A DNA stretch of 61,545 nt, the filler included, from Rhabdomonas costata (taxonomy: Eukaryota): assembly GCA_019059605.1 (NCBI GenBank). It is 21 parts of 21 records of this genome, joined end to end, with 100 filler letters (N's around TTAATTAATTAA, not from the genome) between each part and the next. Parts side by side here need not be neighbours in the genome. Positions count along the whole stretch, not along the records: positions 1 to 2,838 come from JAHMHO010001930.1; 20 more parts are not named here. The stretch is one strand, 5' to 3'. Of the stretch, positions 1-61,254 are shown piece after piece; position 1 is the stretch's first letter, and every line of letters starts with the position of its first letter. The position numbers were made by a program, and so were the translations under genes. The notes beneath the pieces are model-generated. The model made no database searches and was not told where the DNA came from. It saw only the letters and a list, made by a program, of their open reading frames with translations.

Positions 1-1965
1 TTTTTTGTGTTGTCACAGATTCGCCAGATTTCAGCCCGCTCGATCCTTTAAGTGAAAGCAGCCCGATCTCTTTCATGAAAGTGCCATTGTGGTTGCGATT
101 TGGGCATTGGCAGAAGCTGCGGAGTTGGGTAAGATTTTCAATCATTGGAGGCTGCACCCAGCTCGACAATTTCAGTGCGACGGACATTGGCTCTTTGGTA
201 ACGCCAATGACACTCTCATACTTCTTCCACGTTGCCAGGGGGATCCGTTCACCTGACCATATTGTTTGCACGCACTGGTGTAGAGCCAAGAACTCTTGGT
301 TAGCACCATCGTCACACCCCAGGAAGAAATCCCTCATCACAGGGGTAGCCATAATTGTGTGCACCAGTGCAGTGAACCCTCCTTCAATGGACGGATGAAG
401 GTGTTGGGGCGTGGCCCAATTTGGTGCTCCTACAGCAGGTCTTCGTCTTTCCTGTGGTTTTGGCACAGGCAACGTGAGCCTCGCCCGGGTGCGTAGAAGC
501 GTCTCCATCAAATCCACTTCCGACGAGCTGAAAATCCAACCTTCACCATCGTCTTCTTCCGGAGACTGAATCTTGGAGTTGAAGACGGTCTCAAAGTAAG
601 GGCGCAAGTCGTTGCGGTTCTGCAGAACAGCCTTTTCCATTCGATGAATGGCACTCGGCAGGCAACTCACAAAGCGGTATGCATTCTGCGCTGGGGGCTC
701 GAGGGAAACAAATTGACTGCACAGTGCTCGCGCCAGATTTAAGCGGTAAGTATGAAAGACCACATTTCCCGGATTGCCGTCTTTTCTCAAACACAGCCTT
801 GAGCTGGAAACAATGCGGTCCCACAGTCGCACTGGATTCAACTTGCTGTGGTTGTTCTTAGTTGGCAGAGCAAGGGTCATTGGATCCCATGATACTGTTC
901 CCTGCGGCCACACCACGCTGAGAAAAGGTATTGCATCTCGATTGTGCTTGCACACACTGCATACTGCGACTTGAAGGACGTTTTCTTGGATCCAGAACCT
1001 TGTTGAAGCGAATCTCCCTGACATGGCCTGTAAAGGAAGTTGCCACCCAGGAAAGAAAGGTCGGGGATTCTGAAGCTGACTTTGACTTGAACGAAGGAAT
1101 TTACCTTCGAAAAAGTCGGACAAGGGGAGGCAATCATGCTCTCCACATACCAGGAGGGACCTACACACGGCACACAGTGTGTCGTAAGGGCGGGACGCTT
1201 CTTCCACAAACTGCTCGGCGGTGATGGGGTTTGGCTCGTGTAGGAAACCGTCACATGGACCAGGAAAATCCATAGGAAGGGATGGAAACGAGGTTTTCCA
1301 CATTTGTCTCAGTGCCGGTGGTAACAGAACCCAGTGGTCCAGTGTATTCTGGTCTTGTAGCTGTTGGCAAAACTTCTGTGGCCATTGAAGCTTCCGCTGC
1401 TGCTCAGCTGTGAGATGATAGTCGGAGTAGTAGTGAAGGGCAAGACATGGAGCGCATAACGAGGCGTCCTCGTGTCTAACCTGAGGGGAAATGTTGGAAA
1501 ATTATGGAAAGGCAATGAAACACATTGTGTGTGACAAAGAAGGAAGATAAACACGATGTGGTAGCAAACCAATTTTCGGTTGAAGCACGTTCCGCGCATG
1601 ATCAGACTCCTGCGCTCTTTCACAGGTAACCCTTCCAGGAACCCTGGATGTTCTGCGACATCAGATGCCGCCACCAAAGATATGCAGGTTCGAGCGCAGC
1701 CCGCGCAGCATGATGGAAAGTTAGTTCGAGTACCCTGATCGGTAGCGTCTTGTTCAGGAGTCGGCTTTCCCACTTGCCCACCTCTAGTCTTGGAACGCCG
1801 TTTCGCAGTCGCGCTGACATTGTTCGTGGAAGGAGCAGATGAAAGTTGTGATCCAGTGAGAGAAGCATTTACGTCATGCTCAGTGAGGAGTGCTTCACCT
1901 GTAGTACTCAACGTACTCCAGGGCACTGAAATAGCATCTTCTTCATGGTCGCTGTCCGTGTACAT
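1..1965 (-). CDS. Large Cys-rich hypothetical protein, 3'-truncated (exons 1965-1570 and 1480-1; GT-AG intron 1569-1481); possibly from a mobile element
   Basis: Manual translation of 1480->1 is stop-free for ~493 codons and runs off the contig, so the ORF track misses it. It joins in frame to the MYTDSD...FNRKL exon through an 89-nt GTTTGC...CCTCAG intron. Contains paired CxxC motifs (CAGC/CAPC, CAVC/CSVC). Confidence 0.7.
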
Positions 1966-2838
1966 TGGAAAACAGTGATAATATGAAGAGAAGGCAAACT
2001 GCACATCACGGAGAAAATGATCACGACAGTTTTTAAATAGGAGCCATCGGCAGCCGAGACATTGATGTATGTGGTTGTTTCCAAATGATATTGAAACTGG
2101 ATAAGAGAAGCGGCGGTGCTTTTCGCAACTTTTTTTGTGGTAGTCAACAACAATGCATGCTAATCCATTATCCAGCCGTTCTTAAACTACAATCGAGAGA
2201 CAGCTTTTGAATGTATTCTGTCAATCTTCACTTACTCTGAAGAAAATGGAACGGCCTGAAACTGAAAAAGTGTCGGCTTACAAAAAAGGTACCCCAGAAT
2301 TTGTAAAGCCAGCAGTTCCAGATTCGAAACTTTATTGCTAAAAAATCGAATTGCATGGTTCCATCCACTCCAAGGACTCCATCTTTTTCCTCTCCGAAGT
2401 AAATGAGGCCTAGCCGCACCTCACCAACAGCAGCACAAAAGCAGTGGGCTGGCAATAAGTTCCCTGATTGATTGGTTGAGCTGTGAATGTGAGCGAGAAG
2501 CTCGAGCAAGTGCAACAGCAGATGAATGTCTGTTTAACTCGAACCTCCACCCAAGGACCACCAGAGGGACAGACCAATAATAACAGAGGGGAAACAATAT
2601 CGCTGCAATTGATGAGGAATTGGAGCATGAGCAAATTCTGGAGGGATGGATGTTTTGCTAAGAACCTCCGCGTGCACACACACACACAGAAACGGGCGTT
2701 CAGAGAATAACGGTGAAGGTGGCTGCGATCTCGCAAAAGCTCAGCACAACCACAAATAGAAGAAAAAGATGGCGAATGATGCTGAAAGGTACTTTGCGGT
2801 GTGCCCTCTGCAGGTCCCCTGAGAGCCTACCACCAAAA

Positions 2839-2938: not shown

Positions 2939-5900
2939 GGTTGTTGGGAACAGTTGGGCTCATATTGCGCCGTTTGCCCCGGCCTTCCGGCACCTTCGTT
3001 TGCCCCAAACCGCACCGAACCAACTGGTCCCATCGGTTTTTCGCGTCATTTCGCCAAACTGTACCCGACAGCACAAGGACCCAAGAATTACCGATATTAC
3101 CTTCCAGCGCCAGACTTGGTGGGTGCATCGGGGCTTTCCCCCCGAGCCGCTCAGCCGGAAAAGCGGGCGAAACCCTTACCTCGTCCACTTTTGAAGCAAC
3201 GTTTTCGTGCGAGAGCGTTGGCTTTCATAAAATATTTAAAATTGGACCAATGGAAATCGGGATCCAATCGAATTTGTAACCTTCACTCCACCAAATTTTT
3301 TTGATAGTTTCTTAACCTTGAGTGCCGTTTTTCTTCTAGTTTTGTTCTTCTAATTTCTTTTGTTTTCATTTCTTAATGTCTTAAGATTGGAATCGAATCG
3401 GATCATCGGATCGGAGATCTAAATCATCAATCAAAGACAAAAAACCAAAAAAAAATTGCCGGTTACCGATCACACGATTTGCGATTGAAGTTCAAATGGT
3501 GAATTGCAATCGGCATTTGTAGTACATGCCAAAGTTCGTGCTGAACATTTGATATGGATGGAATTAACACAGCCGACAGCACCATGTCAATCATGAACAT
3601 ATATCAAGAGCTCGTGACAGATTCCTACATCTTTGTAGTGTTTATAATGCTCAATCACTGAGTGTGCATTCTTTTGGTCAGACACTTTGAGCAACGTGGG
3701 CAACAAGCGGCTGAAAAGTGGTACAAAAACTCCGCGTGGTGGCAAAGGTGTTACTGCGCTTAAGAAAATGAAAGGCGGCCAACGTGGAGTTGCAGCGGTT
3801 GAATGCATTTTATTACGGAAAACAGAGTGTTTTTATCATACACAATTTCTATATGATAAATCCCATGGTTTTATAACCACGTTAAAGCGCAAACGTGATT
3901 CTTTGTGCCGTATTTTGTTGGCTATGGTACTGGGTACTGGTGGTCTCCAACTAACATTAGTAAGTATCGCAAACATTAGCAGCATAAATATTTACGCGCA
4001 CTTTATGAAATCTTTTGCGACACAAAAGTGAGACGTTTTCATACTAGCCACTTACAAAATGAAATGATTACTTGGGCAAAATTGTCTATACTATGTCAAA
4101 CTATACCAAACCGTTGATAATAACTTCAAGGGCAAAGATTACCGAAAGCACAGTGCAAGAACTTCACCAAATAAACTATCTGATAATTGCGTTTATCAAT
4201 GGTATTTATTGTTTCATGCAGTTTTCATAAGTCATGCTCATTCTGCTCTTAATTCTTTATGGAGAAATAAAATAGAAAAACCGTAATCTCAAAAATATAG
4301 AGTCTCCATTCTGTGGTTTTGGGAGACTTTTGTATACCAATTTTATGACTTCCATGATGTGTAGACTTCACGGTCTTACCTTTAACTAAATGAAATATAA
4401 CTAATTGCGCAGACGTGGAGACACCAATGGCAACCAAATTATCAGCAAATTACTCGATTTAGAATACTTGATAGTGTAAAAAACAATGAGTTATAAATAA
4501 AAGTCGATTTCATTGGAGATTAAACACCACTTAACATCCGAAAGTCCCAGAGCCAACTTTTGGTGTCCATGAACAACAGCTTCAGTAAAAACACACTGGA
4601 TATGGATTTGATTACAGCATTTCTAAAATAAACAGCAAAAACAATTGCTTTACGTCCGCTTGGAACAACTTTTTACACCATCCATAAAGTTTACTCTTTA
4701 AATGTAGACTGCAATCCCTTTCTGTACTAACATATTGTTGCGTAGATTTCATTATTCACTCAAAACACGGATTGTCATCATCATCAAAAGTGTGTTAGTT
4801 TGTGTGTAGATAAAACTGCATTGTGCAAGAAACGTACAGTAGCAAAATCTTGCTACAATTGCATAGAAAACAACTTATAAAATCAAATTTCTACTGAACA
4901 ATTTTATACACCGTAATTTGTTGAAAAGTTACCATCACATTCTTCTATGGGCTTTGAAGTCACACAATTTCATTTTTCTTGTAAATTATCAGATAAAGAT
5001 ATTACAGACAAAAATGCCAACAAATAAATTGCGTCACTCTACAGCCTCATTGTTTTTCCTATGATAAGTAATATGAGTGTAATATTGGTTTTGTTATCTC
5101 ACAAACCTATATACTTTGTTCTTAAAATTGTGTGAAAAACCACACAGTGTCATGGCAAAATGGTTTTCCTAATTAAAAACAAGTTGCTTCAGCTGAAGGA
5201 AGCGAATGGTAGCCTAGTAGCGCCATCAACGACAAATGTTTCATAGCAACGGAATGGAACTGCAGTGACTGGAGTGGCAATGGAAGTACCTTTCACATCT
5301 ACAGAGAGTTTACCAAGAGCATACCCAATCAATAAACCCCATTTGAAGCAGCATTAATGTCTGAATAAAAGGCGTTAGCTAGAAGAAGCACCAGCAGAAG
5401 TTTGCGGTGACATATGGTTAGGTGCCATGCCGCAAGCAAATTCCAAGCCACAAACCACACAGTCACAGTCGTTTGAGGAGACATCCGCAAGTAGGGTGCC
5501 ACAACCACCACAACACACTCACTTACGTTTATGGAAGCGCTTAGGCTGCTGTGGCTAAAAACGACTCTGCATTAATCTTTGTAGGGAACTCCTCTTTGCG
5601 CTCTCTTCTCAGAAACACCTTAGTCTGGAAATACATCGCCCTATGTGGATGTGCTTTCAAACCCTTCAACCATATGAAAGGCCTCTCAACCTTGTACTTT
5701 GTCTGTGAAGGAAGATGGTACTGATCTGGAATGATCGGTAGTCTTCCTGACAATATATCCCTGGAACCAACCAACCNNNNNNNNNNNNNNNNNNNNNNNN
5801 NNNNNNNNNNNNNNNNNNNNTTAATTAATTAANNNNNNNNNNNNNNNNNNNNNNNNNNNNNNNNNNNNNNNNNNNNGTGGTTTTTGCTGCCAGAAGAAGA

Positions 5901-14020: not shown

Positions 14021-15028
14021 GCACCTCATTTGTCCCCTCCCCACAGGCCTTTCAGTTGGTCCCAAATACACAACCCACTGGGCACTTGTTTTTGTTACGC
14101 CATGCGATGTGACCTTTTTTGGGGTGGGTTGGTCTCAGACCTGCCCCCTTATTAGTATGCCTGATTTTTTTCCCGTTTGTATCTACGCACAAACAAACAC
14201 GCACAGAAATCATCTTTTGGCACGCTGGTGGGGACCGTGCCATTTGTGGCGTGGCATCTAACATAAATTCCACTTGTCGTTTCGCCAGGTAAGCATGACG
14301 AGCCAAAATGGACCCTTCATGCCATAGCATGGCGTAGAGATGCTCCCAGAGACTGGTAATTTGAAGAATTACCATCCCAGCAATTAAACCCCCAACCAGC
14401 CAATCCAGCTGAAGAGATGATACCCGCTCCGGCTCCGGTTAGATTGGGAACTCATTCCGCGAGCAGGGCGAGGGAGATTGTTCTAGATTGTTCTTCAAGG
14501 AAAATTGTTCTACCCCCACCCCCTAACGGTCGATGCAGGTTTGGTAGTCGGCAGAGAAGGTTACATGGGCGCTGCTGGAAGACCCCCCCCCCCCNNNNNN
14601 NNNNNNNNNNNNNNNNNNNNNNNNNNNNNNNNNNNNNNTTAATTAATTAANNNNNNNNNNNNNNNNNNNNNNNNNNNNNNNNNNNNNNNNNNNNACGTCC
14701 CACGAGCACATTCGTGTGCTCTAGGTCGTACCTCCAGCCCTGGCCACATCGAAGACGGCAACCCGGAAGCGGAGGCACCTTCTGTTCTCTGTGTTTTTTA
14801 CCTGGTGCCTCTTGGTTTCAGCTGTTTTTCGCCTGACCGGGTCCAGATCGTTGTTTTCTTTCAATCCAGTGAAAAGCATCCAGCGGTGGGGCAGTAGAGC
14901 GTTTTTCTGTTTAAGAAAAGTCCCTTGAGGGCTTATGAGAGTCGATGTCAGCTGCCTCGGAAGCTTTATGGAGCAAGGGAAAGACTCGTGTGTCCCTCCA
15001 CCTAAATGTTTCCAAAGGAGCCATGCAG

Positions 15029-15124
15029 GTGGTTGAGAAGATGAATGGCCGGTTCTTTGCCGGGAGACGCGTGGGCTGCCGATTCTACAATGAGGCTGCC
15101 TTTCGCAAGCTGCTGGAGTCATGA
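15029..15124 (+). CDS. C-terminal exon of a UHM-type RRM splicing-factor-like protein (SPF45/PUF60/RBM39 class)
   Basis: VVEKMNGRFFAGRRVGCRFYNEAAFRKLLES* contains the UHM NGRxFxGR motif. An upstream DRVQIVVFFQ segment (~14835-14885) fits the preceding strand. Confidence 0.7.
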   Translation: MVEKMNGRFFAGRRVGCRFYNEAAFRKLLES

Positions 15125-15707
15125 GGTAAAAAACACAGAGAACAGAAGGTGCCTCCGCTTCCGGGTTGCCGTCTTCGATGTGGCCAGGGCTGGAGGTACG
15201 ACCTAGAGCACACGAATGTGCTCGTGGGACGTCCTTTAACCGAAAGCTGTTACTGTTCGGGCTGCAAGATGACGTTCTGTTTCGTTTCCTTGTTGTCAGT
15301 CAACAGCTCATGCAGGCACATTGGTGGCTACATTGCATTCACAAGTTCAAGAACAACAGAAAGTACAAAAACCTGCCATTTTTGCTGGACGTTACCCAAG
15401 AGGAATTGGAGCTATTTCCATGCGTTTCTGGCGAAGTTCGCTTTGCTGATGTTATTGCTCCTTGGTGTTATGGGAAGTGTGATTCCAGGTTTGCGTTCCA
15501 TCGTTTGGGAGTGCACCTTTGATGAAACCGTTTGGTACTAACCATTTCTTGCAGAAGTGAGGCAGTGCAAGTGTGGGCAAGTTGGTTGGCTAGTTGCAGC
15601 CATCTCGACAGCTGGTCATGTTCGAGAAATCGGCAGTGCACATTTTCAACCGCTGGCATCTTTTTTGGCAGGGTCGTCTCCCACCCCTTCTTTCTGCTTT
15701 TTTTACA

Positions 15708-31376: not shown

Positions 31377-33044
31377 GTATTGACGGGTCGAAAGCATGGG
31401 GAGAATCACGTTGAGCGGTGAGACGACCGCTGGTGACGGTTGAGGTCCATAAGCAGAAAAGGACTGTAATGAAGGGGCAAAAAGAACGCAACCAGTGCAT
31501 GAGTATATACCCCTTTGGCGTCCAGTGGGTAACTGCTCACCTCTGCTTCTACCCTGCTTCTGCTTCTGCCTCCGCTTACCACTTTTGCTTCACACTTCTG
31601 CTTCAGCCGCAACTTGTACTCCTTTTTCTTCTCCTACTTCCAACTTGCATAACCTCTCTGGCCTTTTGTTTCGATAGCATCAACTGTTTTGGTGGCTGAT
31701 GCCCATTGCGAAACTCACCTTCGCGGAGTCTTGCTTTGTTCTCGTTACCTGCTGCTTCCATTTCTTTTTTCCTCTTCCTTGTTTCTTCATATCGTCGTTC
31801 CAGGCGCTCGGAAGCGCCGCCCACCAATCAAACCCCAAACCCGTTGTTGCAAAACGTGATCTGAGAATAAATAGAAATACACCCCTTTTGTCCTTAATGC
31901 TTCCACAGCCTGAAATACCAGTTAATGAGAGGTCATCCGGAATGCGTGATGGAGCCTATGGTTTGCTGACGGTCACCACACCCGCCCTTTGATCCCCAAA
32001 CTGAAGGAATGCCTTTCTTTTCTTCAGATCCATCCGACTTGCGCACGGTTGTGGATGGTGCAGGAATGCTATTCGCTGCGAGAATCAAGAGCTCCACAAC
32101 ACGAAATTCCAACCACAGGGACGGATAGGCTGGAAAACGAGAACGAGGTTTAGTAAGCTGATGCCCTGTGCAGGAAAAAACTATTGCAAAGCAGGAACAC
32201 CAACAAANNNNNNNNNNNNNNNNNNNNNNNNNNNNNNNNNNNNNNNNNNNNTTAATTAATTAANNNNNNNNNNNNNNNNNNNNNNNNNNNNNNNNNNNNN
32301 NNNNNNNTTGTGGGTCATTCTATAAATGCACCTTCTTTTCGGGATGCTTGATCACAACAGACAGTGACGAGAAAATCCTGCATCCCGAAAAGAAGGTGCA
32401 TTTATAGAATGACCCACTGCGAATCAAAATCCCAAGAGCACATCAGCTCATCTGCACCCACGCGCACCCACACCGAGTCTCTGACTCTATTTGGGCACCG
32501 CACTCTTCCATGGAGGTTTCAGCCATAAGGAGTGTGCAGTTAAGCACAGCGGGCCACGCAAACCCAAGGGCACACCCAGTAAGACCACAGCAAACACACG
32601 GAACAAGCATCTTAAGCTTCGGCTATGGCCCGATTTTCAACACTGTCCCTACCTTGCACTGTTCAGCAAGCTCGGAAAGGTTGCCCGCACGCAGAAAAAT
32701 ATGGCAACAGCAAAGACCTTGTGGGGGGACACCAGCTGAGTCCATGCCCTAAGTTAAATACAAAGTGAAAAACAAACGCGGGAGGAACGTGGGAAGAATA
32801 TCAAGAAACCAACCCAACACAGAGCTGTTGACTGCCCCCACTGGGGGCCTTCGCGCCTTCTCTACCACTGTCCTCATGCATCAGCCATGGACTGTCTGCC
32901 CTGAAGGGCATCGAATGAGCATCAGACCAAAGTGTCCATGCAGTGCACGTGCACGTGCACACAACCCCAACAAGTTCCTGCAGCACAGTCGCCGTGGCTA
33001 AAAATGGGCGCCCCTTCCATGGCAGAACAAAAGAAGGAACAAAC

Positions 33045-34462: not shown

Positions 34463-37032
34463 CTGAGGCGTGCGCACGACAGTGCAATGACCCCAACTTC
34501 ACAGGCATTGTTTCCACCAGGTGGTGCTTTTCGAACCCCCGGGAAAACATGAGCTGTTTTTTTGAGGGGTTGATCCTGCAAAAAACCCCAACCCAGGTTT
34601 TTTGTGGTATTGTTTTCTCATCCCCACCCCTGCCATTTGTTTTACATCTTCACATTCTTAAACAATACACACACGCACCCCTCCCGTCCTCCCCATCTCT
34701 GCCTGATCGAAACCCTGTGAGCACCCCCCTTCGGCTGCGGCGCCTTGAAGTCCCAGACGATGACCAAAACACTCGAACACGCACTTGACCAGCGCCCCGC
34801 TCTTCTTTCAACCACAGGTTTTGGTGATTGTGTTTGCCGCGGTGTTTCCGTTCGCTCTGGGGAAGTGGCTGCACACCCAGTTCTATCCCCCTCAGTACAA
34901 GAAGCTGCGGGGCCGCGGCACCACACCCTTCCGGTTCTCCATTCTGTAGAGAGGGAATGCGGAAAACCCTCCCCAGCTACTCATCCCTCGACTTGTTTGT
35001 ACAGTTCGCCCCGCGTCATCTTCGGTCGAATATCGTTCCGACTGAGTCTTTGGCCCCGTGCTCTTGTGCCCTTTCCGCGCCTCCCACATCTCGTTCGCCC
35101 AAGATGTCGTGGGCCACGTGGAGCTTGCTTTGCTACTCTGTGNNNNNNNNNNNNNNNNNNNNNNNNNNNNNNNNNNNNNNNNNNNNTTAATTAATTAANN
35201 NNNNNNNNNNNNNNNNNNNNNNNNNNNNNNNNNNNNNNNNNNGGGGGTTGGGTCGATGCGTAAAAACACTGTCAATAAAAGGAATACAAAGCAAACAATA
35301 AAGACCGCCCCAGACTGCTTTCGTTTGAATCTTTCTGAAAGTGAAAAATGATGGGGAGAAAAGCAGTCTGGGGCGGTCTTTATTGTTTGCTTTGTATTCC
35401 TTTTATTGACAGTGTTTTTACGCATCGACCCGACCACCACCTCCATGGCAGATGGAGAGCTGACCGTACACTTCCTCGTCCACGTCCTCACTTCTCTCCT
35501 CGGTCATGTGCCCATTTTGCCCTGTTCCGATACACCTCATCTATGTCATTGTGGACGCTTTTATGTGCATTTTTACGCCTTTGTTTCGATAAGTTTCTTC
35601 CCATACGCAGCCTCAGCGAGCGCCCGTCGACATGCCGTCTGCCTGCCATGGAGCAAAGCCAGGGGCCCAACTTCCTTTCATGCGTGGGACCAAGCAGTGG
35701 CTCACCGGTACACCCACCGCCGCCCCCGAAGCTGGGCAGGCTGCGGCGACTAATGCTCCTGCTGAGGGGGTGCCGAAAAGGCGCAGCCGGTGGCCAAAGT
35801 ACCATCTCTCACGGGCTCTTTGAAGACACCCTCTAGGTTATGGGCTGATCACCATTTTGTGACACCTCGGGGTGCTTTTTCGTCTGTACTTCCACCCTCC
35901 TTTCCAGTTTCGACGTTCGGCAATGACTCCTGTGTGACTTTGTGACCTGTTTTTCTTCGGTCTGATGTCATAGCCGTTTTTTGTTTGTGTTTCTCGCTCA
36001 TTCTCCTCTTTTGTCTTCGGTGTGTGTATCGAGAAGGTGCACGTCGTACGTCGTTCTTTCTCTTCTGCCGATCCCTTTCCTGTGATGTTCTCTTTGGTGA
36101 ACGACAGGTCAAAAGACTCTCTCCCAATTGTTCATCTCCCCTCTTGCCCCCCGCGGTGGCCTTCAGTGCAGTGTATGCATTGCTCTCCAGTTCCTTTCGT
36201 CTCTAGCACTCTTCTCTCCACGGCTGTTCTGCCCTAACCAACGAGCATCATCAGTTCTCTTCACCCCTTTCTTCCTTTTTGTGCATTGGGCGCGCTGACA
36301 GGGCCGTCTGTCTTGCCTTCGAGGATGCCCTGTACCATCGTTCATCTTTGCAAATCTGGGTTCACCTTTCACCTTTCACGAGTGTGTATGGATGGAACGT
36401 GGCGTTCCCACGCTGATCCCTTTCTTCCTTCTTCCATCTTCTAGACCACTGACCTAAAGGTACTTACCTTGGTCACCCCATTTACGGGGAGATCACTTTC
36501 ACCGTTTTCGAAAATGCGCCTACCCAAACACATGTGTTCACCTCTTGTTGCACTGTCTCTTGCCTCTCATACCCTTGGCCCGGTGTAGCCAAGCCTTCGT
36601 TTCCACCAACAACGAGTGACACACGGGGCGATGTCTCTGGGTCCTCCTTCTCGTGAGCGCAAAACTCTCATGGTTTTTTTGTTTCGAGGACCAACCAAAC
36701 GTGTTGTACACTATGCGTGGCCCCGTCGCTGCTTCTGGTTCTGTATTACCTTGATTTCTTGTCATGCATGGTCTCCCATGCAATCTGTTGTGGTGGGATG
36801 CATTTACGATCTTTCCTTATTTCTTTGCGTGCTTAGCAGCCTCTCAACCCCTCACGAACACACAGTATCTTTTTTACACTGCCCTTGGAATTATTCTGAA
36901 ACATACCTTTTTGACAAATTGCCGCCATAGCCACACAAGAATTCACGACTCACACACAGGCATAAATCATACGGGACTCGCGGTGTACCGCAAGCTCTGA
37001 ATGAAACCATCACCGTGCATTCAGACACATTT

Positions 37033-37770: not shown

Positions 37771-38425
37771 GTGTGTTAGTGAGGAAAGATGGGGTTCCGG
37801 CAGCGTGACTGATCAGTTGTTTGATGCAAGATTCTGCTTTTGAATCACTTCATGGACGGGATTATGTGCGAACATGGCACAACCATTTTACTGGCATTTA
37901 ACTTTCGTGAAAGTCTTGATCTTTTCGCCGGAACCCATTTCCTTTTGAGTAGTCACGAGTCTCTTTCGTAGTCACGGCAAAACGATTTCACAAAATGTCA
38001 TTATTGCCTTGATTAGCACCCATATTAGCACGTCACACATCAGCACTCATATCCTTCCTCAACCCACCACCCCCCNNNNNNNNNNNNNNNNNNNNNNNNN
38101 NNNNNNNNNNNNNNNNNNNTTAATTAATTAANNNNNNNNNNNNNNNNNNNNNNNNNNNNNNNNNNNNNNNNNNNNGGGGTGGGGTGTACTGTCCTCCTCA
38201 CTCTAGAAATTTAGAACGGTTCGCAAGAAGCGTTCTCGCTGAATTGATCTCCAAAATCCCACCACTTCAGAGAGAACGCTTCTTGCGAACCGTTCTAAAT
38301 TTCTAGAGTGAGGAGGACAGTACACCCCACTGTAATTCATGGAAACGAGACAGGGATCGGCACACGTTTGAGAATGCACCAAAAGTGGGAACGAATAGTG
38401 AGGGAGTGAGGCTGAAGGAGCCTAC

Positions 38426-45379: not shown

Positions 45380-46977
45380 GTTCTACCGCGGAGAACTCTT
45401 CCTTCCGATTAGTTATCAGCAGATATCGGCGAAAAGTCACAAAGGCAGAGATGTTTGTGACCCAATTCCTGGGTGGTGTTGCACCTTGACCTCTGCTGTT
45501 GTGGTCATCTCACGTTTCGAAAACGGAAGATTATTGTTGCCGTTCAACACTTTAAACAGAGTGGGGGTGGTAGGAATCCAGGTATGAATCTGCAACCCGA
45601 TGTCAAGCCGAATCTCCTGAATGAGTCATCTTTTCATCTTTTTTCACTAGTTCTTTGAAACAGCGGCTCATCAATAGTAATTTAACATATCTGCATCAAA
45701 AGAAGTTTATTTTGTTTTGTAGTTTTCTCGCCCGTGGTTTTTTCTGCACAAAACACATGCTCAGGCTTCCAGCTTTGCGAGCAATCCAACCCTGCTCTCG
45801 GCCGGGAACAGGCAGCCAGCCCGTGGACTATGCCCCAGCTTCTCCCGTGACCAAGGCCGAGGAATCCCAACCTGCGCTGGTGCCCGCAAAGCCAGGCAGC
45901 TGCTCACTCCGTTTCCACTTTCACGGCTTAACACCCCTAAAGAGCGGGCTTTCACTTCTGTTCAAATGCAGAGAAGGCATTTGAGAGAAAATTGGGAGTT
46001 TGCGACAGACAGCCCTTCTGTTCCGTGTTTTTTGTTAAGAGATTTTTTAATGAAAGAAGAAAGAAATATGTAAAAAGACAAAAGACGTCGGTTGTGGTTG
46101 ACCGAAGGTCAGCGGTGCATGATGATGTGCTTTACACGGTTGTGCAGTAATTTAGCACCCGTCCTTGTGTCCAGATTTCTTTGTGTGCAAGGCTTTACCT
46201 GACTTTAAATTGCTGGCTCGAGATTTAGGCTCGCGAGCTTCCTTTTCTTTCACAGAGGAGCATTCACCCGTTTCTCCCCTCGAGTCTCAGGTGTGCCATT
46301 TTGCTCAAGAGCACTGCAACATGACGTTGTGCAAGCAAAGCAAAGGAATGGTGCTGGAGGGACTCATACCTGCTTTGGTGTGATGCCAAGGTGTCTGCTT
46401 AGTTAGCAATTGCCACAGCGTCTTTGGTCGGTCATTTCAGGCTCTCAGTTTTTGGACACTTCAGCTTCGTTTTTCACACCTTTTTTCTTTCCTGTTCGCT
46501 TGTCGATGCCTTAGTGCTCCAGAATCGAAGCTCAGTACTGTTTTTCTTCCCTTCTGGAAGGCAGGGCAAGGGAACTCGGCAGAACCACGGGACGCGATGG
46601 GCGGAAAGGCCCGCGTGGCACGATTAAACAAAAGAACGAATGTTGTTGGGAAAGAAATAGGATAATCATAAGCTTGTCCACGTGGTCTCAAGGCTATTCC
46701 CTTCTGGTATGCACGGGTTGTAGGCTTCGCAAGAACCAACGCCAAGCAAGCACTCTGAGATGCCACCCTCAGTTCCTGTTGAGGTCCCGACCTATCTCCC
46801 TGAAGCAGCCAGTGTGGAGGCTTCGGACACTGCCCCGTCCAAACCGGTCACACCCCCAACCCAAACACACCCACCACNNNNNNNNNNNNNNNNNNNNNNN
46901 NNNNNNNNNNNNNNNNNNNNNTTAATTAATTAANNNNNNNNNNNNNNNNNNNNNNNNNNNNNNNNNNNNNNNNNNNN

Positions 46978-47828
46978 TCCTCTCCGGGGGCGCGACGGCG
47001 GTGGTGCAGCCGGGGGGGGGAAGGGGGAGCGATGCAAGGGTCTTCGACCAGCCCGTGGGAGGAGGAGAAGACGACGAGGAAGCAGCGGGAGTGGGGGGTG
47101 CACGCACCCCTCCCCCCCCGGGAAGGGAAAGTTCCCGCCCTTCCTTTCCCGGAAACTCTGAGACGGCCGATGTCCATCCAGCTGCGGCTTCCCTCCGTTG
47201 GTTGCAGGCGGAGCAGCCCGTGCTCCACTCCCGCGGAGACGAGGTCGCAGCGGGAAGGGAAGCCTGACCCGCTCCCTTCCCCGAATGCCTCAGTACTACA
47301 CGGATTCTGCAGCTGGTGTGCACAGTCCTGCCGCAAAGGAAGGCCCCGATGGGCAACCGGTTCGAAGCTGAGAGAAGGGAAGGCGGACGGAGAAGGACGA
47401 TCTCGGGAGGTGGTCCGAGAGCCCTACCCAGGCTGGCAGCGGGGGGTGTGAGAGGAGGATACTGGGCCCTCCTCCTCCCCCACGGGCCCTGCCGGGTGGT
47501 GGGATCGCTGGGCCTTGACCGGAGATGCGTCCCTCCAGCCGAGCGGATACCGAAGCTGGTCTTCATACTGATGAGGGAGTTCGGGGTGCCCTGGGCTAGC
47601 GGTGCCGCTCCCAGGGGAATCCGGCCGCCCGCCTCGGGCTCCCTGACGGATCCGCAGAGGGGAAACGCAGCGCCCCCCCTTCCGATGGGAAGGAAGGGGG
47701 GGAAGGAACGGCCGCCCGCGCTCGCACGCACGCTCGCGCTGTCTCTTTGGGTGGACTGGGCCCCTCCATCGCGGAAGGGGCCCCGCCGCAGAGCAGTGGG
47801 AGCGTGTGTGCGTGCGTGTGCGTGTGTG
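46978..47828 (+). other. rDNA 5' external transcribed spacer (partial)
   Basis: GC-rich, hairpin-rich sequence immediately upstream of the 18S 5' end. Confidence 0.7.
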
Positions 47829-49816
47829 TACCTGGTTGATCCTACCAGCGAACGTATGCTTCTCTCAAGGGCTAAGCCATGCACGCGTGAGAGCAAGTTG
47901 CGTGCCTTTGCCAAACCTGTCTGCGAATGGCTCATTGGACCAGCGATAATCTCAGCAGAGAGTGGATCCTTCTCGTGAGCGGGGAGTTCGTGCCTTGCCT
48001 GGACTTCCAGACCGTCGGAGTTCTGTCTCTGCGGGGGAAGGGAGGAAGGCCTTACTCCGAGGCCGGTTCGGCATACCCTCTCTTTCTGAAACAGTTGGCT
48101 AATACATGTGCGAGGGCACTCCTGTCCATTCCCTCGGGAATGGGACGGGATGCACTGGGCTGACCCAAAGAGGGAACTTTGCCGCCCCGGCGGGGGCAAT
48201 TTTCCTGGGGTGGAACCAAGCCTTCTGTGGAAGACCGAGGGGGTGGGTGCTGCTCTGGGTGTCTCACCCAGGGTGGCACCGCCCACGAGAACGGATTCTG
48301 CTGCGTATGGTGCGCTAGTGGCGGCCCTGCGAAGCCCCACTACTCTGCTTGAGTTTCTGCCCTATCAGCCTGCACGGTGGTCCAGGGGACCACGGCGGCG
48401 ATGACGGGTAACGCGGAATTAGGGTTCGATTCCGGAGAGGGAGCCTGAAATACGGCTACTACGACCAAGGTTGGCAGCAGGCGCGCAAATTGCTCAATAT
48501 CGATGTGCATTGGTGAAGCAGCGACGAGGAGTGGTACCTTTTATCGATCACTTGATCGGTACTGGTGGAATGAATGACGACCCAAGGAATGCAGTGAGCA
48601 TCCACTTGTGGGCCAGTCTGGTGCCAGCAGCCGCGGTAATTCCAGCACAAGTGGCCTACTTTGACGTTGTTGCCGTTAAAAAGCTCGTAGTTGGTTGGCA
48701 TCCGAGAGAGCCCCGGAAGCTCCCCAGGCCCTGTTTGGGCGTGGTGCGGGCGGAAACGGGCGATCTTGCGGTGCCCTGCTCAACTCGGGCTGCTCTCGAC
48801 CTCTGCCCCTTCCATCAGGGACATCGGCTCTGCTGTTCCCTCGGGGACAGTCCGGAGGCGGGCAGACGAGGGTGGTTGGGTCTGAGCTTCTCAGTGGGAA
48901 CGATTTTCCGATGATGGGAGACGGGCCAGGCCCTCACCGCGCAGCTCTTCTGTTGCGAGGTGCTCCGGACCGCCGCCTCTCGCAAACCGCAACGCGGTTA
49001 TTTGGCCTACATCCTGAAGCAAGGCACTGCAGAATGGCCCGATGCACCCCTTCTGGCACCGGGCCCCCCCTCGGGGGGGACCGTACCCGGGGTGCAAAAA
49101 GCCAAGGAAACGCCCTCTGGTTTTGTACCATGAGCAAAGCTAAGCGCTCCAAGCAAGTTGTCCTTCCTACCGATCGGATGTTCAAGCGTGGCATAACAAG
49201 GGACCGGTCCGAATGGACCCGATGTTCTGGCATTCTTTACTGGCCCGCTTTGGACGAACTTCGCTTCCCTTGGACCATCTCGGATGACCCCCCCAGATCT
49301 GGGCCGGTGCCCTGCTGAAGTCCCCGGGACCGGGGTTGAACTCTGGTCCCTCTTCGGCAGGCCCATCCCTCTGGGGGAATCAGGCGCCGCCCTGGGCCAG
49401 GGAACGGAGGTGTTGACCGAGGTCGTTTCTGTGCTCAGGGGACTGGGCGGCGAGCGGTGAAACGCTTTGACCCGTCTCAGGACCACCAAAGGCGAAAGCA
49501 CTGAGCAGGACTCGACCTGCCAATCAAGAGCGAGTGTGCGGTGATCGAAGAGGATCAGATACCCTCGTAGTCCGCGCTGTAAACCGTGCCTACCGAGGAT
49601 GCGGGCTGCGTTCCTTCGGAATGTCAGCCCGTGTCTTTCCCCCGCAACGAGAAATCCAAGTGTATGGGTTCAGGGGGGAGTACGGTTGCAAGACTGAAAC
49701 TTAAAGGAATTGACGGAATGGCACCACAAGGCGTGGAGTTTGCGGCTTAATTTGACTCAACACGGGGAACGTTACCTGGATAGCACGTGGAAAGGATATG
49801 ACAGGCTGAAGCACTC
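47829..49816 (+). rRNA. 18S: 18S (SSU) rRNA, 5' portion, euglenid-type, truncated by the contig end
   Basis: Universal blocks TACCTGGTTGATCCT, GTGCCAGCAGCCGCGGTAATTCC and AAACTTAAAGGAATTGACGG. Euglenid-like GGGCTAAGCCATGCAC, CCCGCAACGAGAAATCC and GACGGAATGGCACCACAAGGCGTGGAG. Confidence 0.97.
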
Positions 49817-56836: not shown

Positions 56837-58709
56837 GGTGGGCAAGGTGGATGGGAGGGGGTGTGGGCGAGTGCCCTCCCATAACAAGAGGTGCGTCATT
56901 TGTGGACCGATGGAAACCTAGCCTTTGCTTAACCCTCCACCATAACTCGAACCCTACACTAACGTTAACCGGAACTCCGGCACCAAAGACAACCCAAAAC
57001 CAAACAAAACCACAACCGCTGCATGGAAACGCATTGACCTCAACGACAAAATTCTGAACAATACGTAGAATTGCCCCTGCCTCAACCGACAGTCGGCTCC
57101 AACTACATCTTCTTTGCAGGGGTTAACTCCAGTTCTTTTTTCATAGGTTTCTTCTTTTTCATAGATTTTTGGGAACCCCCCCCCCCTGTTTATTTTCGCC
57201 GTTCTCCCTCGATCCCTCCCGCAAACCACGGACGTCGGTAACGAGGTGACACGGGGGCTTCTGTGGAGATTTTGGGGACGAGCCCGAAGCAATGATGTAG
57301 TATGGTTCTCTTCTGCATGGCAAGGGAAAGTGAAACAGTTTCCGTACTCTCGCTTTCCTTCAGCGCAGTAAGTGAAAACATATCCCCAAAATGAAAACTT
57401 TTTTCGAGGAACCGATGGAGAAGAAGGCCTCAGCAAATTGCGGGAGACATAGCACCAGGTGCAGTTGTTCGATGGCATACAGTTTTCCACGACAAGGAAA
57501 GGAAAGAGGGGGCAGCGTCATCGCACCACCAGCCCATCGCCGTTTAGTCTCATACTGGGTTGAGTTCCTGAGTCCATTCCGAAACGTAAACCGGCATACT
57601 CGAGAGAGATGTCACCGCCCTGTTCCCTCTCTCTATCTGCAGGCCGATGTGGAGCCCTGGAAGGCGCTCATCCAGGTGTGTTCCCTCCTCTCTCAGACCT
57701 GGAGGGGGAAGCACTCCCCCTTCCCATCCCCCATATGCAGCATTGCCATATATATGGTCATTCCTCCAGGATTTTTTAACCCTGTGTAGTGGAAAGCTGA
57801 AGCTTGCCGAATTCGGCTGAAATGGATTGAATGAAAACGATGAGGCTGTTGTATGGGGGGGGGTCCATACAATTGTTGAACGGTTCCCTTCCCCCAATAA
57901 AAACATGAGTGTCCCAAATCGATTAAAATGATATGCACAGAGCAAGGGGGGGCTTTGGCTTAAATGCTCCGTGCTAATGGGAAGGAACCGGAAACCCGGT
58001 ACTACCAGTAAGTCGGAAGGGGTCCGAACGTGTTTCGTTTTCCGGTTGTATTTTGTGTGCGGGTGGGGGTGGGGTCTCAGCCCATGTCCCCGCCGGCGCC
58101 GCAGCCGCTGTCGCAGCTTCCCATGGACCCCCGGTCCCGTTCCCCAGCAAGGAGCCCCGCTCCCAGCGTGCGCACGGCTGATCCCACCGGAGCAGTGGAC
58201 GGCATGCCCCCATCTCCCTCGTCACAATCGCTCTCCCACATATGTTGTTGTTGGTGATGCAGTCAGGCAGGCTTTGGGATCATAATTCCCGCCTGAAGAT
58301 GAGGAAGGCAGACCCCGTGGACACCCCGTGGACACGTGAGCATTCGCAGACGCACACATACACCAGCCAAATGTCGCGTCATGCTCCACGCCCTGCTCCT
58401 GTCATCTGCTCTTTCGGTTTTTCCACGGCTACGTTCACAGTTTCCCACTGACTCGGATTTTTCGCGTTTTGTGTCAATTTTTCAATCTCCGGAATGCCAA
58501 AAAAAAGATACGGTTTTTACAAAAAAATTTATGAATGTACACGAATTTTTACAGACCAAATTTAGGGGCATTTTAGGGCATTGTGTGGAGATCCCTGCTC
58601 ACACCACCCNNNNNNNNNNNNNNNNNNNNNNNNNNNNNNNNNNNNNNNNNNNNTTAATTAATTAANNNNNNNNNNNNNNNNNNNNNNNNNNNNNNNNNNN
58701 NNNNNNNNN

Positions 58710-61254
58710 GGGGGTGGGGCAGCCACGTCGGCGGGAAAGCGTATGCCCCACTGGAATCCTTGGTCCAGTTGTATCTGCCCCATGGGGGATTGGACCAGGT
58801 GGTGCTCGGCCCGGGTAGCGAGGAAAATGGGGCGATTCCAAAAACGTAGTTAAGGGCTTGATAGAAGCCGGACTTCGTGCCATTGTCCGTGGAAATTGCG
58901 GTGGCCTCCTGCACAAGGTAGCCCAGAAGGACGCCAGTAACCGGGGAGGCGTACCCCCAGATCGTCGGGGTGTTGGTCCCTGGCGTCGAGGGCTGCACAA
59001 TGGCACTGAGCTTATCCCAGGCGTGGGGAACGACGTCCTGGCCGTTGGCCGTGTCGGTGTTCCAGGTGACCTTCCACCCGGCCAGCCACGCGCCGTAGCA
59101 TGCCAGGGCTGGAATGGCAGGATAATACTGCTTGAACCACGCCGAGAACGCCCCGTTTCCTGGAGAGGCGCCCGCCGTGGGCAGCACACGGACGCTGGCC
59201 CATGCGCTCCCTGCTCCGTAGGGATACAGCACGGCGGCCAGAGTAGGCGACAACGCTCCCGCCAGACTGTGGCCGCTGAAGATCAGGTTGCTCTTCGCGC
59301 TCTGGCAGCGATTCAAGAACGTCGCGATGTTCACCGCACCTTTTTGGTTTTGGATTTTGGGCATAATCAGATCAAAGTTGCCGTGTGCAGGAACGACTAA
59401 AGCACTCCAAAGTCAAGGGCTGAGGGACAGGACCTGGCAAGGCAGCCATATTCACACGCATCATTGTTCCAAATGATCATTGAGCAGCCTCTATCCCGAA
59501 GGAAAACCGACTGCAAGCCAGAAGGTGCCAACACCCAAGAACTGCAGCATCCTCACCGCGGTATCTCTCCGCCCGCACTCCCAACCAACCCAACCCCAGA
59601 CACTATCAGCACTGAATCCGCTGCAAACCCACACTCTCCCAAAAAGCAACAAAGCAAAAAGGCGCTCGGCAACCAAAATGGAGCCCCGGCCGTCGCGGAA
59701 AGTCAGCCACCCACCACCCGGCAAACATTTCAAACTCACATCTGACACAAAACACCTCACTCTGTGCGGGAAAAGGAGCCACGTACCTGTGGTGCGTGCT
59801 CCCCCAGGCAGCGTGCCCACGGATGCCATATTGGTGACAAGATTGCGGATCCCCAAGGCAGTCGCCGCAGAAATTGCCGCCGAGGGGTTTATGGTGGGGC
59901 CCGTGGGCTGCGGGTTGGCTGGCGCACTGATCGTGCCGCGCATCTCCGCAGACAAGTTGGCGTACGAGACAGCCAGCGTGGGGGAANGGTCGCCGCAGAA
60001 ATTGCCGCCGAGGGGTTTATGGTGGGGCCCGTGGGCTGCGGGTTGGCTGGCGCACTGATCGTGCCGCGCATCTCCGCAGACAAGTTGGCGTACGAGACAG
60101 CCAGCGTGGGGGAAACCTGACGGAAAGGTGACCAACAAGAAGGAAGATAAGTTACGCAGCCTCCAGCTGTACTCCCACAAATTTTCAAAATGTATCAGTT
60201 GCAGATCAGAAAGCGACAAATTGCATCTGTGATCAATGCCACAAAAAACCGCACAAGCCCACCACAGAGTACGTACATTGACATCCTCGTAGACCCAGTC
60301 GAAGATGCTCATCGGATTGGTGCCGGCCATGGCGACGACGTAAGTGTTCTGGCTCGCGCTGTATGCCACGTACATCGCGTTGGTGGCATACCCCGGCGCT
60401 GGCGTGTTGAGATACACAGACGGGCCCCACACCACTTCCCACGGAGCACCCCAGAGGATCGCGTTGACAGGTGCCGCACCCGTGTTCAACAGCGGGAAGA
60501 ACCCGGGGTAAGAGAAGCCGGCTGGATTCTTGCCGCCGTTCAGATAGACCTCCAAGTACTCAGTGAGCTCGGACTGGCTTGCCGTAATATCGGATGCCGC
60601 ATTGGCAGCAAAATTCATGAGATACACGCTCTGAACATCGCAGTACTGAATGCCCGCCTGTGTGGTTTGACCATGATAGGGAAAGCACAAAAAGCCGAAA
60701 GCAAACAACCATAGCAACACAGTCCCTTCACAGAATTTCGAAGTTAACATGCATCTTACAAAAAGACATTTCCATAAAACCAAGTGGAAGGTGAGTTGCT
60801 TAAACCTTGAAAAATGCGACCTTGGGAGGGTGCCGCGGAAGGTAAAAGGTGCTATGAAGGAAACCTTGGAGGGCTTCACAGAAATTTGTTTGGTGGCGGC
60901 GCGCAGCGACGGCTTGGACTGCCCCGCGCCGCGGTACCGAAGAACCAGCGTAGTGCTGCCTTCTCGGCAGTTGCCCCTGAACCATAGCTCAACCTCATGG
61001 CAGCCTTGGCCATCCTCCCGGGCGCCGGGGTGGGTGCACGACTTTTTCTTCATCTGGATAACGCTGCGGTTGAAATGGGCTTCCCAGCTCAACCCCGTGA
61101 AAGGCTTCGCTGGCAAAACAACCCGAAGCTCATCTTGTTCACCAAGGCTCACAGGAGCCAATCCCACAGTGTAGTCGCGGTGATGAACAAGAGCTTCACA
61201 GCACAGAGACGTCGCCCATATCAAAAGCACGAAGCTCACCGCACTCATTTTCAT
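58710..61254 (-). CDS. Secreted class-3 lipase with an N-terminal chagasin/I42-like domain, 3'-truncated; exons 61254-60865, 60657-60277, 60116-59787 (contains an artefactual duplication), 59396-58710
   Basis: Signal peptide MKMSAVSFVLLIWATSLCCEA. Lipase_3 motifs YVVAMAGT...DW, FSGHSLAGALS (GxSxG), AGASPGN and DVVPH. Confidence 0.85.

Follow-up and report, generated by a model that had tools for sequence, protein, structure and literature searches.

A truncated Rhabdomonas costata gene related to the N-terminal region of Helitron-like transposases, with a probable USP-like fold and no recognisable catalytic cysteine

A long cysteine-rich reading frame runs off the end of a short contig in the Rhabdomonas costata assembly GCA_019059605.1 and raises the question of whether it belongs to the cell or to a mobile element. 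The contig (1..2838, JAHMHO010001930.1, no strand assigned) is the first in the window, by which we mean the whole 61.5-kb stretch of DNA analysed here, and base 1 is the contig end at which the gene, encoded on the minus strand, is cut off. The predicted product is homologous to the region that precedes the Rep domain in Helitron-like proteins, and part of it resembles the fold of ubiquitin-specific proteases (USPs) in predicted structures. On balance, we think that the window copy forms, or once formed, the front end of a gene for a Helitron-like transposase.

The minus strand of contig 1..2838 contains the 5' end of a genuine protein-coding gene, which we read as two exons. Exon 2 (2..1480, minus strand) encodes 493 codons up to the contig end without a stop, and its product, named P0001, provides the residue numbers used below. 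It lies in a frame (2..1501) that contains 500 codons without a stop and is still open at base 1; based on the base composition of the window, such a frame would arise by chance with a probability of about 1.3e-10 per frame. A second minus-strand frame is open over 1309..2181, and its first ATG (1965-1963) opens the proposed exon 1 (1570..1965, minus strand, 132 codons, product named P0002). An intron of 89 nt is proposed between the two exons (1481..1569, minus strand), with GT...AG borders, phase 0, and a pyrimidine tract ahead of the AG. The GC content is 0.39 in this segment, 0.51-0.52 in the exons, and 0.41 upstream of the ATG. Removal of the intron joins 132 and 493 residues into a product of 625 residues.

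The relatives described below point to the same boundary. At the acceptor, the unspliced translation of the window reads ...FSNISPQ/VRHEDASLC (the slash marks the proposed junction), and at this position the translations of two relatives read ...SPIPQ/ARGERAKFC (P0005) and ...YFYFQ/AHHPQATLC (P0007). All three have a Q (CAG) nine residues ahead of the first Cys, after a stretch that resembles a pyrimidine tract. These translations suggest the same intron position in the three homologues, which are 35-57% identical. The earlier note on this DNA had described a stop-free frame of more than 620 residues and one long uninterrupted exon. The length was right for the 625-residue product and wrong for a single frame, as a second frame has to be joined to the 500 open codons through the intron, and the claim of one exon is refuted since the stretch 1502..1965 is closed in the frame of 2..1501.

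The relatives of P0001 were collected by an exhaustive HMMER search against 1,835,955,588 representatives at E <= 0.001. Sixteen homologues were found, eight of them at E <= 1e-10 and five at E <= 1e-30, and the best reaches 2.9e-56 at 56% identity; no named protein is among them. Three word-index homology searches found P0012 alone and missed the other relatives, and they are uninformative on the rarity of the family. Most relatives are partial open reading frames (ORFs) of 136-540 aa from short contigs; P0004 is encoded on a contig of 6.6 kb, and P0003 and P0005 on one of 3.0 kb. The longer ones are P0008 (811 aa), P0021 (978 aa, 98% identical to P0008), P0011 (928 aa), and P0012 (2,543 aa).

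These longer relatives connect the window gene to Helitron-like elements. In three lineages (P0008/P0021, P0011, and P0012), the N-terminal part is similar to P0001 and a Helitron Rep domain comes after it, and P0001 matches the Rep-bearing proteins with E-values of 3.5e-20 (P0008), 4.6e-10 (P0011), and 5.8e-10 (P0012). The BLASTP alignment of P0001 with P0012 is collinear and pairs residues 31-129 with 97-199 (4e-8) and residues 144-383 with 405-662 (3e-11). The match of P0021 to the Pfam domain Helitron_like_N passes the cut-off (30.8 bits, cut-off 28.9), those of P0011 and P0012 are sub-threshold (17.2 and 17.9 bits), and the HVH and HCH motifs of the HUH type are present in the family alignment. 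Furthermore, a PIF1 helicase (34.9 bits, cut-off 25.9) lies further along P0012, together with a GIY-YIG match that is weak and sub-threshold. Compared with the PDB sequences, the family profile reached PIF1 structures (7e-8), Helraiser (0.068), and SLX1 (0.16), with all of these matches coming from the long relative.

When 20 members of the family were compared with Pfam (E up to 10), five had Helitron_like_N, three PIF1, and three GIY-YIG; none of the 20 matched DUF6570 (PF20209) or UCH (PF00443), which is the Pfam name of the USP family (peptidase C19). P0001 (at E up to 1) and P0002 gave no Pfam match, and P0001 found no match among the PDB sequences and nothing in the language-model atlas. 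In a scan of metagenome contigs for the DNA of the relatives, 150 pattern stretches matched and none was confirmed.

The USP-like part of the protein was identified from structure models. AlphaFold models of P0001 and P0008 were built on shallow family alignments, and P0001 residues 343-456 (113..454, minus strand) would form the N-terminal half of a USP-like domain, with helices modelled at a predicted local distance difference test score (pLDDT) of 67-86. The P0001 model was compared with 48,161 chains using an aligner independent of Foldseek. Among the 36 top rows, 31 are of the USP type, all over residues 343-457, and the part of the USP catalytic domains that they match is the N-terminal one, on the Cys-box side. 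The best rows are USP25 (6hel_A, Z 6.9, root-mean-square deviation 2.7, 83 residues aligned) and USP9X (5wch_A, Z 6.9, root-mean-square deviation 2.7, 93 residues aligned), and Pan2 appears at Z 6.6. In the same search with the P0008 model, the first 13 rows are of the USP type (11 by title, Z 4.6-5.8), and here residues 413-571 align to the C-terminal (His-box side) part of USP domains. Chains of Pan2 and Sad1/USP39 (we take 4msx to be Sad1 and 6ah0 chain W to be USP39) are among the top fold rows for both models. Foldseek itself returned weak rows for P0008, many of them USPs, with USPL1 as the best (E 0.022), and the re-comparison of its list gave 27 USP-type rows among the 27 at the top. 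By language-model features, the clusters closest and third closest to P0008 residues 320-575 were Pfam UCH clusters (0.94 and 0.93). We accept the USP-like fold because two proteins, complementary halves of the domain, and three methods agree, though each line is weak; P0001 and its relatives probably carry this fold. The domain would span residues ~320-575 in P0008 and ~620-900 in P0012.

The residues on which a USP depends are not recognisable in this domain. The motif GAPNW...FTALVHTIMATPVMRDFFL occupies residues 351-387, and within it residues 367-387 (GGFTALVHTIMATPVMRDFFL; 320..382, minus strand) resemble the Cys-box helix of USPs, with a helix modelled at 368-378. The motif alignment places a Gly at the expected position of the catalytic Cys, in a register against the USP boxes, Cys-box position included, that we assume from the known USP motifs. 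No Cys is present in P0001 residues 274-388. In the eight aligned members, the helix starts at a column occupied by G, N, or similar residues, with no conserved Cys, and the His-box-like segment has no conserved His column in the five relatives that cover it. By its sequence, the USP-like domain of the window gene appears to lack the catalytic Cys and would not be a working USP by the usual criteria.

Based on these observations, we propose the following explanation. The product would belong to a rare protist family whose full-length members would be Helitron-like rolling-circle transposases, combining an HUH Rep with a PIF1 helicase and, at the C-terminus, a GIY-YIG nuclease. The window would hold the front end that precedes Rep, namely the zinc modules, a conserved middle region, and the first half of a dead USP-fold domain, and the gene would continue, now or once, into Rep and helicase. 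One or two CxxC...CxxC zinc modules would serve the recognition of DNA or terminal sequences. Such a role has been proposed for the zinc-finger-like N-terminal region that precedes Rep in Helraiser, the bat Helitron transposase. The USP-like domain has most likely lost the ability to cleave ubiquitin and is probably a scaffold for binding ubiquitin or a partner inside the transposase, comparable to the structural role of the dead USPs of Pan2 and Sad1/USP39.

Several results weigh against this explanation, and they concern both the fold and the link to Rep. The models have a low mean pLDDT, which is 52.9 for P0001 (67-86 over residues 91-180 and 361-440) and 40.9 for P0008 (50-62 over residues ~340-563). 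All Z-scores of the fold searches are below 8, a range that the tool flags as a possibly common arrangement, and Foldseek searched against the PDB with the P0001 model gave unrelated rows with a best E-value of 0.48. Neither a USP nor DUF6570 was reached by sequence or profile, whether through Pfam, the PDB sequences, the 20 family members, or the family profile. The exon 1 product showed nothing significant against P0012 in BLASTP (local match at E 6.6). No Rep, helicase, or nuclease was found on the contig or elsewhere in the window by tblastn with six family proteins. Two further points, the tree of the family and the end of P0004, are described below.

A maximum-likelihood tree was calculated for 13 N-terminal modules, leaving out P0005, P0010, P0015, and P0017, which are too short or do not overlap, and the near-identical P0019, P0020, and P0021. 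The tree splits group A (P0001, P0003, P0006, P0007, P0004, and P0013) from the clade linked to Rep and helicase (RepHel) with 99/99 support, and all three RepHel-linked proteins fall in this clade, which is sister to group A. No link to RepHel was observed for any member of group A, and the RepHel linkage of the window copy is therefore extrapolated from the sister clade.

Against this background, the claims of the earlier note about the protein can be revisited. The two CxxC pairs and the quoted motifs (CAVC at 103-106, CSVC at 174-177, PFLSVVWP, and GAPNW...FTALVHTIMATPVMRDFFL) are all present. Its Helitron-like N-terminus is borne out by the homology of P0001 to the region ahead of Rep in P0008, P0011, and P0012, and its USP-like segment without a catalytic Cys agrees with the fold searches and the Cys-free interval, with Z-scores below the flagged limit and models of low to middling quality. 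The likeness to DUF6570 found no backing in Pfam for P0001, P0002, or the 20 family members. The idea of a mobile-element protein with a pseudo-deubiquitinase module gains from the family homology and the fold and loses from the position of P0001 in group A. The fold comparison of an AlphaFold model, a check that the earlier note had suggested, gave a USP-type answer with the independent aligner and came back empty from Foldseek for P0001.

The split in the tree leaves room for a different origin of the window gene, which we consider a minority possibility, though one to be taken seriously. The members of group A would be stand-alone cellular proteins, possibly domesticated, which combine zinc-finger and dead-USP modules, end after the USP-like domain, and share only ancestry with the N-terminus of the transposase. 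Group A is a well-supported separate clade, and P0004 (540 aa) ends 7 residues past its USP-like domain. However, every member of group A is an incomplete ORF (136-540 aa) from a contig of 1.2-6.6 kb, and the start of P0004 is an ORF-calling artefact, as the comparison with P0013 places it within the conserved region; its end may therefore be artificial too. The intron position apparently kept in three members is what vertical inheritance would produce, but intron positions are kept in transposon genes as well. The tblastn search with the six family proteins revealed no second copy of the locus on any of the remaining 20 contigs, yet the contig breaks inside the gene, and we infer that such breaks are frequent at repeats.

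The window may also contain the remains of a Helitron-like element of which decay or truncation has left a 5' fragment without a functional product, which we regard as improbable. Broken copies do exist in the family, since a stop cuts P0008 where the 98%-identical P0021 reads on, and only a fragment is visible in the window. However, 625 codons are read over two predicted exons without a stop or frameshift, the proposed splice sites are intact, the GC contrast between exons and intron is kept, and all Cys residues and motifs conserved in the family are retained.

It is very improbable that the USP-like domain still acts as a deubiquitinase, or as a protease for ubiquitin-like proteins, with its nucleophile at a non-canonical position. 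USPL1, the best Foldseek row for P0008, is a divergent SUMO protease of the USP fold, and P0008 and P0021 have a Cys four residues ahead of the expected position. This Cys, however, is found in only these two of the eight aligned members, which are near-identical to each other, and the Cys-free interval of P0001 and the missing His column speak against such activity as well. Finally, although the window contains 67 stop-free frames of at least 150 codons over both strands, a chance open frame without a gene is practically negligible, being refuted already by related proteins in other data sets, with E-values as low as 2.9e-56, besides the ~1e-10 chance of 500 open codons.

The explanation that we prefer, a transposase front end with a dead USP-like domain, has counterparts among known systems. 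In Pan2 (4q8g, 4xr7, 6r5k) and Sad1/USP39 (4msx, 6ah0 chain W), too, a domain of the USP fold that has no working triad is built into a larger nucleic-acid enzyme or complex. They differ in that the USP domain of Pan2 is paired with an exonuclease and USP39 is part of the spliceosome, neither being a transposase, and no sequence relationship to P0001 was detected. Helraiser (7lcc) is a rolling-circle RepHel protein whose helicase is weakly matched by the family profile, as noted above. It has neither a USP-like domain nor a GIY-YIG tail, and no N-terminal similarity to it was detected.

The closest likeness is to the Helentrons. According to PMC9741609, the RepHel proteins of Helentrons (HLE2), for example zebrafish DrT1 and DrT2, have deubiquitinase domains in frame ahead of Rep, with VTD shown to be active and OTU also occurring. 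A ubiquitin-protease-type domain thus lies in frame and N-terminal to the HUH Rep and the PIF1-type helicase, as in the relatives of P0001, and both groups have an extra C-terminal nuclease. In PMC9741609, the Helentron deubiquitinase is VTD (Herpes_teg_N) or OTU and is catalytically active, and the tail nuclease is of the AP type, whereas the window family has a USP-like domain without the catalytic Cys and the tail of P0012 is GIY-YIG; the window copy is seen as a front end only. The paper on HELIANO describes UCH, an N-terminal DUF6570 in the RepHel ORF, and captured GIY-YIG in HLE2 elements such as HelenSM92 (PMC11417382). In contrast to that paper, in which UCH lies in an ORF separate from RepHel (PMC11417382), the USP-like domain is in frame in P0008, P0011, and P0012, is too diverged for Pfam UCH, and is accompanied by no DUF6570 match. 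Full-text searches of the literature turned up neither a report of a RepHel protein with a catalytically dead USP domain in frame nor one of such elements in euglenids.

If a USP fold has stayed in frame in members that diverged deeply while its catalytic residues are missing, this would argue for binding over cleavage, and the family would supply a defined module for testing. The papers cited above indicate that Helitron-like elements acquire ubiquitin-system domains repeatedly (OTU and VTD, and UCH in separate ORFs; PMC9741609, PMC11417382). The family also adds Helitron-like elements with GIY-YIG tails from a protist group for which sampling is poor. The window itself gives only a fragment; its value is that of a pointer to the family, and its weight as a single truncated copy is limited.

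A bolder idea, which we hold to be doubtful, is that a protist Helitron-like lineage fixed a dead USP in frame ahead of Rep as a ubiquitin reader, which would guide the transposase to chromatin or replication forks marked with ubiquitin, or stabilise it there. The clade of the window copy could then be a host-domesticated offshoot with the zinc-finger and dead-USP module only. If true, this would be the first description of a transposase with a pseudo-deubiquitinase as one of its integral parts.

The remaining parts of the protein are described from the N-terminus. The exon 1 product is acidic, then Ser/Thr-rich, followed by a basic KRRSKTRGG stretch and a Cys cluster, CCAGCARTC (1684..1710, minus strand), which lies 50 residues ahead of the next CxxC. 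In P0012, a counterpart CCGC is found 53 residues ahead of its CxxC, which lends weak support to exon 1. The first CxxC of exon 2 (C9 and C12; 1445..1456, minus strand) is also present in P0005, P0007, and P0012, and a second zinc site could possibly be formed by the Cys cluster of exon 1 together with C9 and C12. The alignment consensus further shows a family motif LPPxLRxxW, which reads LPPALRQMW at residues 53-61 (1298..1324, minus strand).

The alignment and the model delimit a four-cysteine (Cys4) module (950..1174, minus strand), in which CAVC (103-106) and CSVC (174-177) are separated by 67 residues; PFLSVVWP follows. Wherever an aligned member covers the two CxxC pairs, it retains them. 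The module is modelled as beta-hairpins at pLDDT 67-86, with only weak FYVE-type rows (Z 2.9-3.2) in the fold search. The obvious reading is that the two pairs would form a zinc-binding Cys4 site. Between its first and second CxxC knuckles, P0012 has an acidic low-complexity insertion of ~200 residues (residues ~200-400), which is found in no other aligned member.

A conserved middle region follows at residues 203-300 (581..874, minus strand), with the alignment pattern PTKNN..NPVRLWDRIV..GN..Q..RNDLRPYF. It is modelled at pLDDT below 50 and matched no known fold. The last 37 codons, residues 457-493 (2..112, minus strand), reach the contig end, and residues 444-493 are again modelled at pLDDT below 50. 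The remainder of the USP-like domain and anything downstream of it lie beyond the contig end.

The layout of the window determines what can be said about the surroundings of the gene. According to the table of N runs and the spacer sequence, the window consists of 21 contigs of ~2.9 kb chained through spacers of the form N44-TTAATTAATTAA-N44. The first spacer (2839-2938) directly follows the contig of the gene, and 19 further spacers occur about every 2.9 kb (for example 5777-5876, 46878-46977, and 58610-58709). The spacer places a stop in all six frames. As the window is made of separate contigs, features to the right of 2838 have no physical linkage to the gene; the apparent genes elsewhere in the window and the small-subunit ribosomal RNA (SSU rRNA), which were considered as genomic context, were dropped for this reason.

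Pfam searches of five large ORFs on the other contigs of the window gave nothing beyond one sub-threshold match. This match is to a chagasin-type peptidase inhibitor (Inhibitor_I42, 21.2 bits, cut-off 27.2) and lies in a 620-codon open frame on the last contig (59491-61353, minus strand). The same frame contains a perfect direct duplicate of 126 nt (59861-59986 and 59989-60114) around a single N at 59987. A partial eukaryotic SSU rRNA (438 bits) is located at 47832-49702 (plus strand) on the contig 46978-49816. It covers model positions 4-1145 over ~1,870 nt and hence has large expansions, and its 3' half is missing because the gene reaches the contig end. The four long inverted repeats of the window (14695-15232, 32310-32417, 35243-35438, and 38179-38330) have arms of 43-117 nt with 95-97% complementarity, and each lies within a few bases of a contig start. 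These palindromic contig ends resemble artefacts of assembly or library preparation rather than biology.

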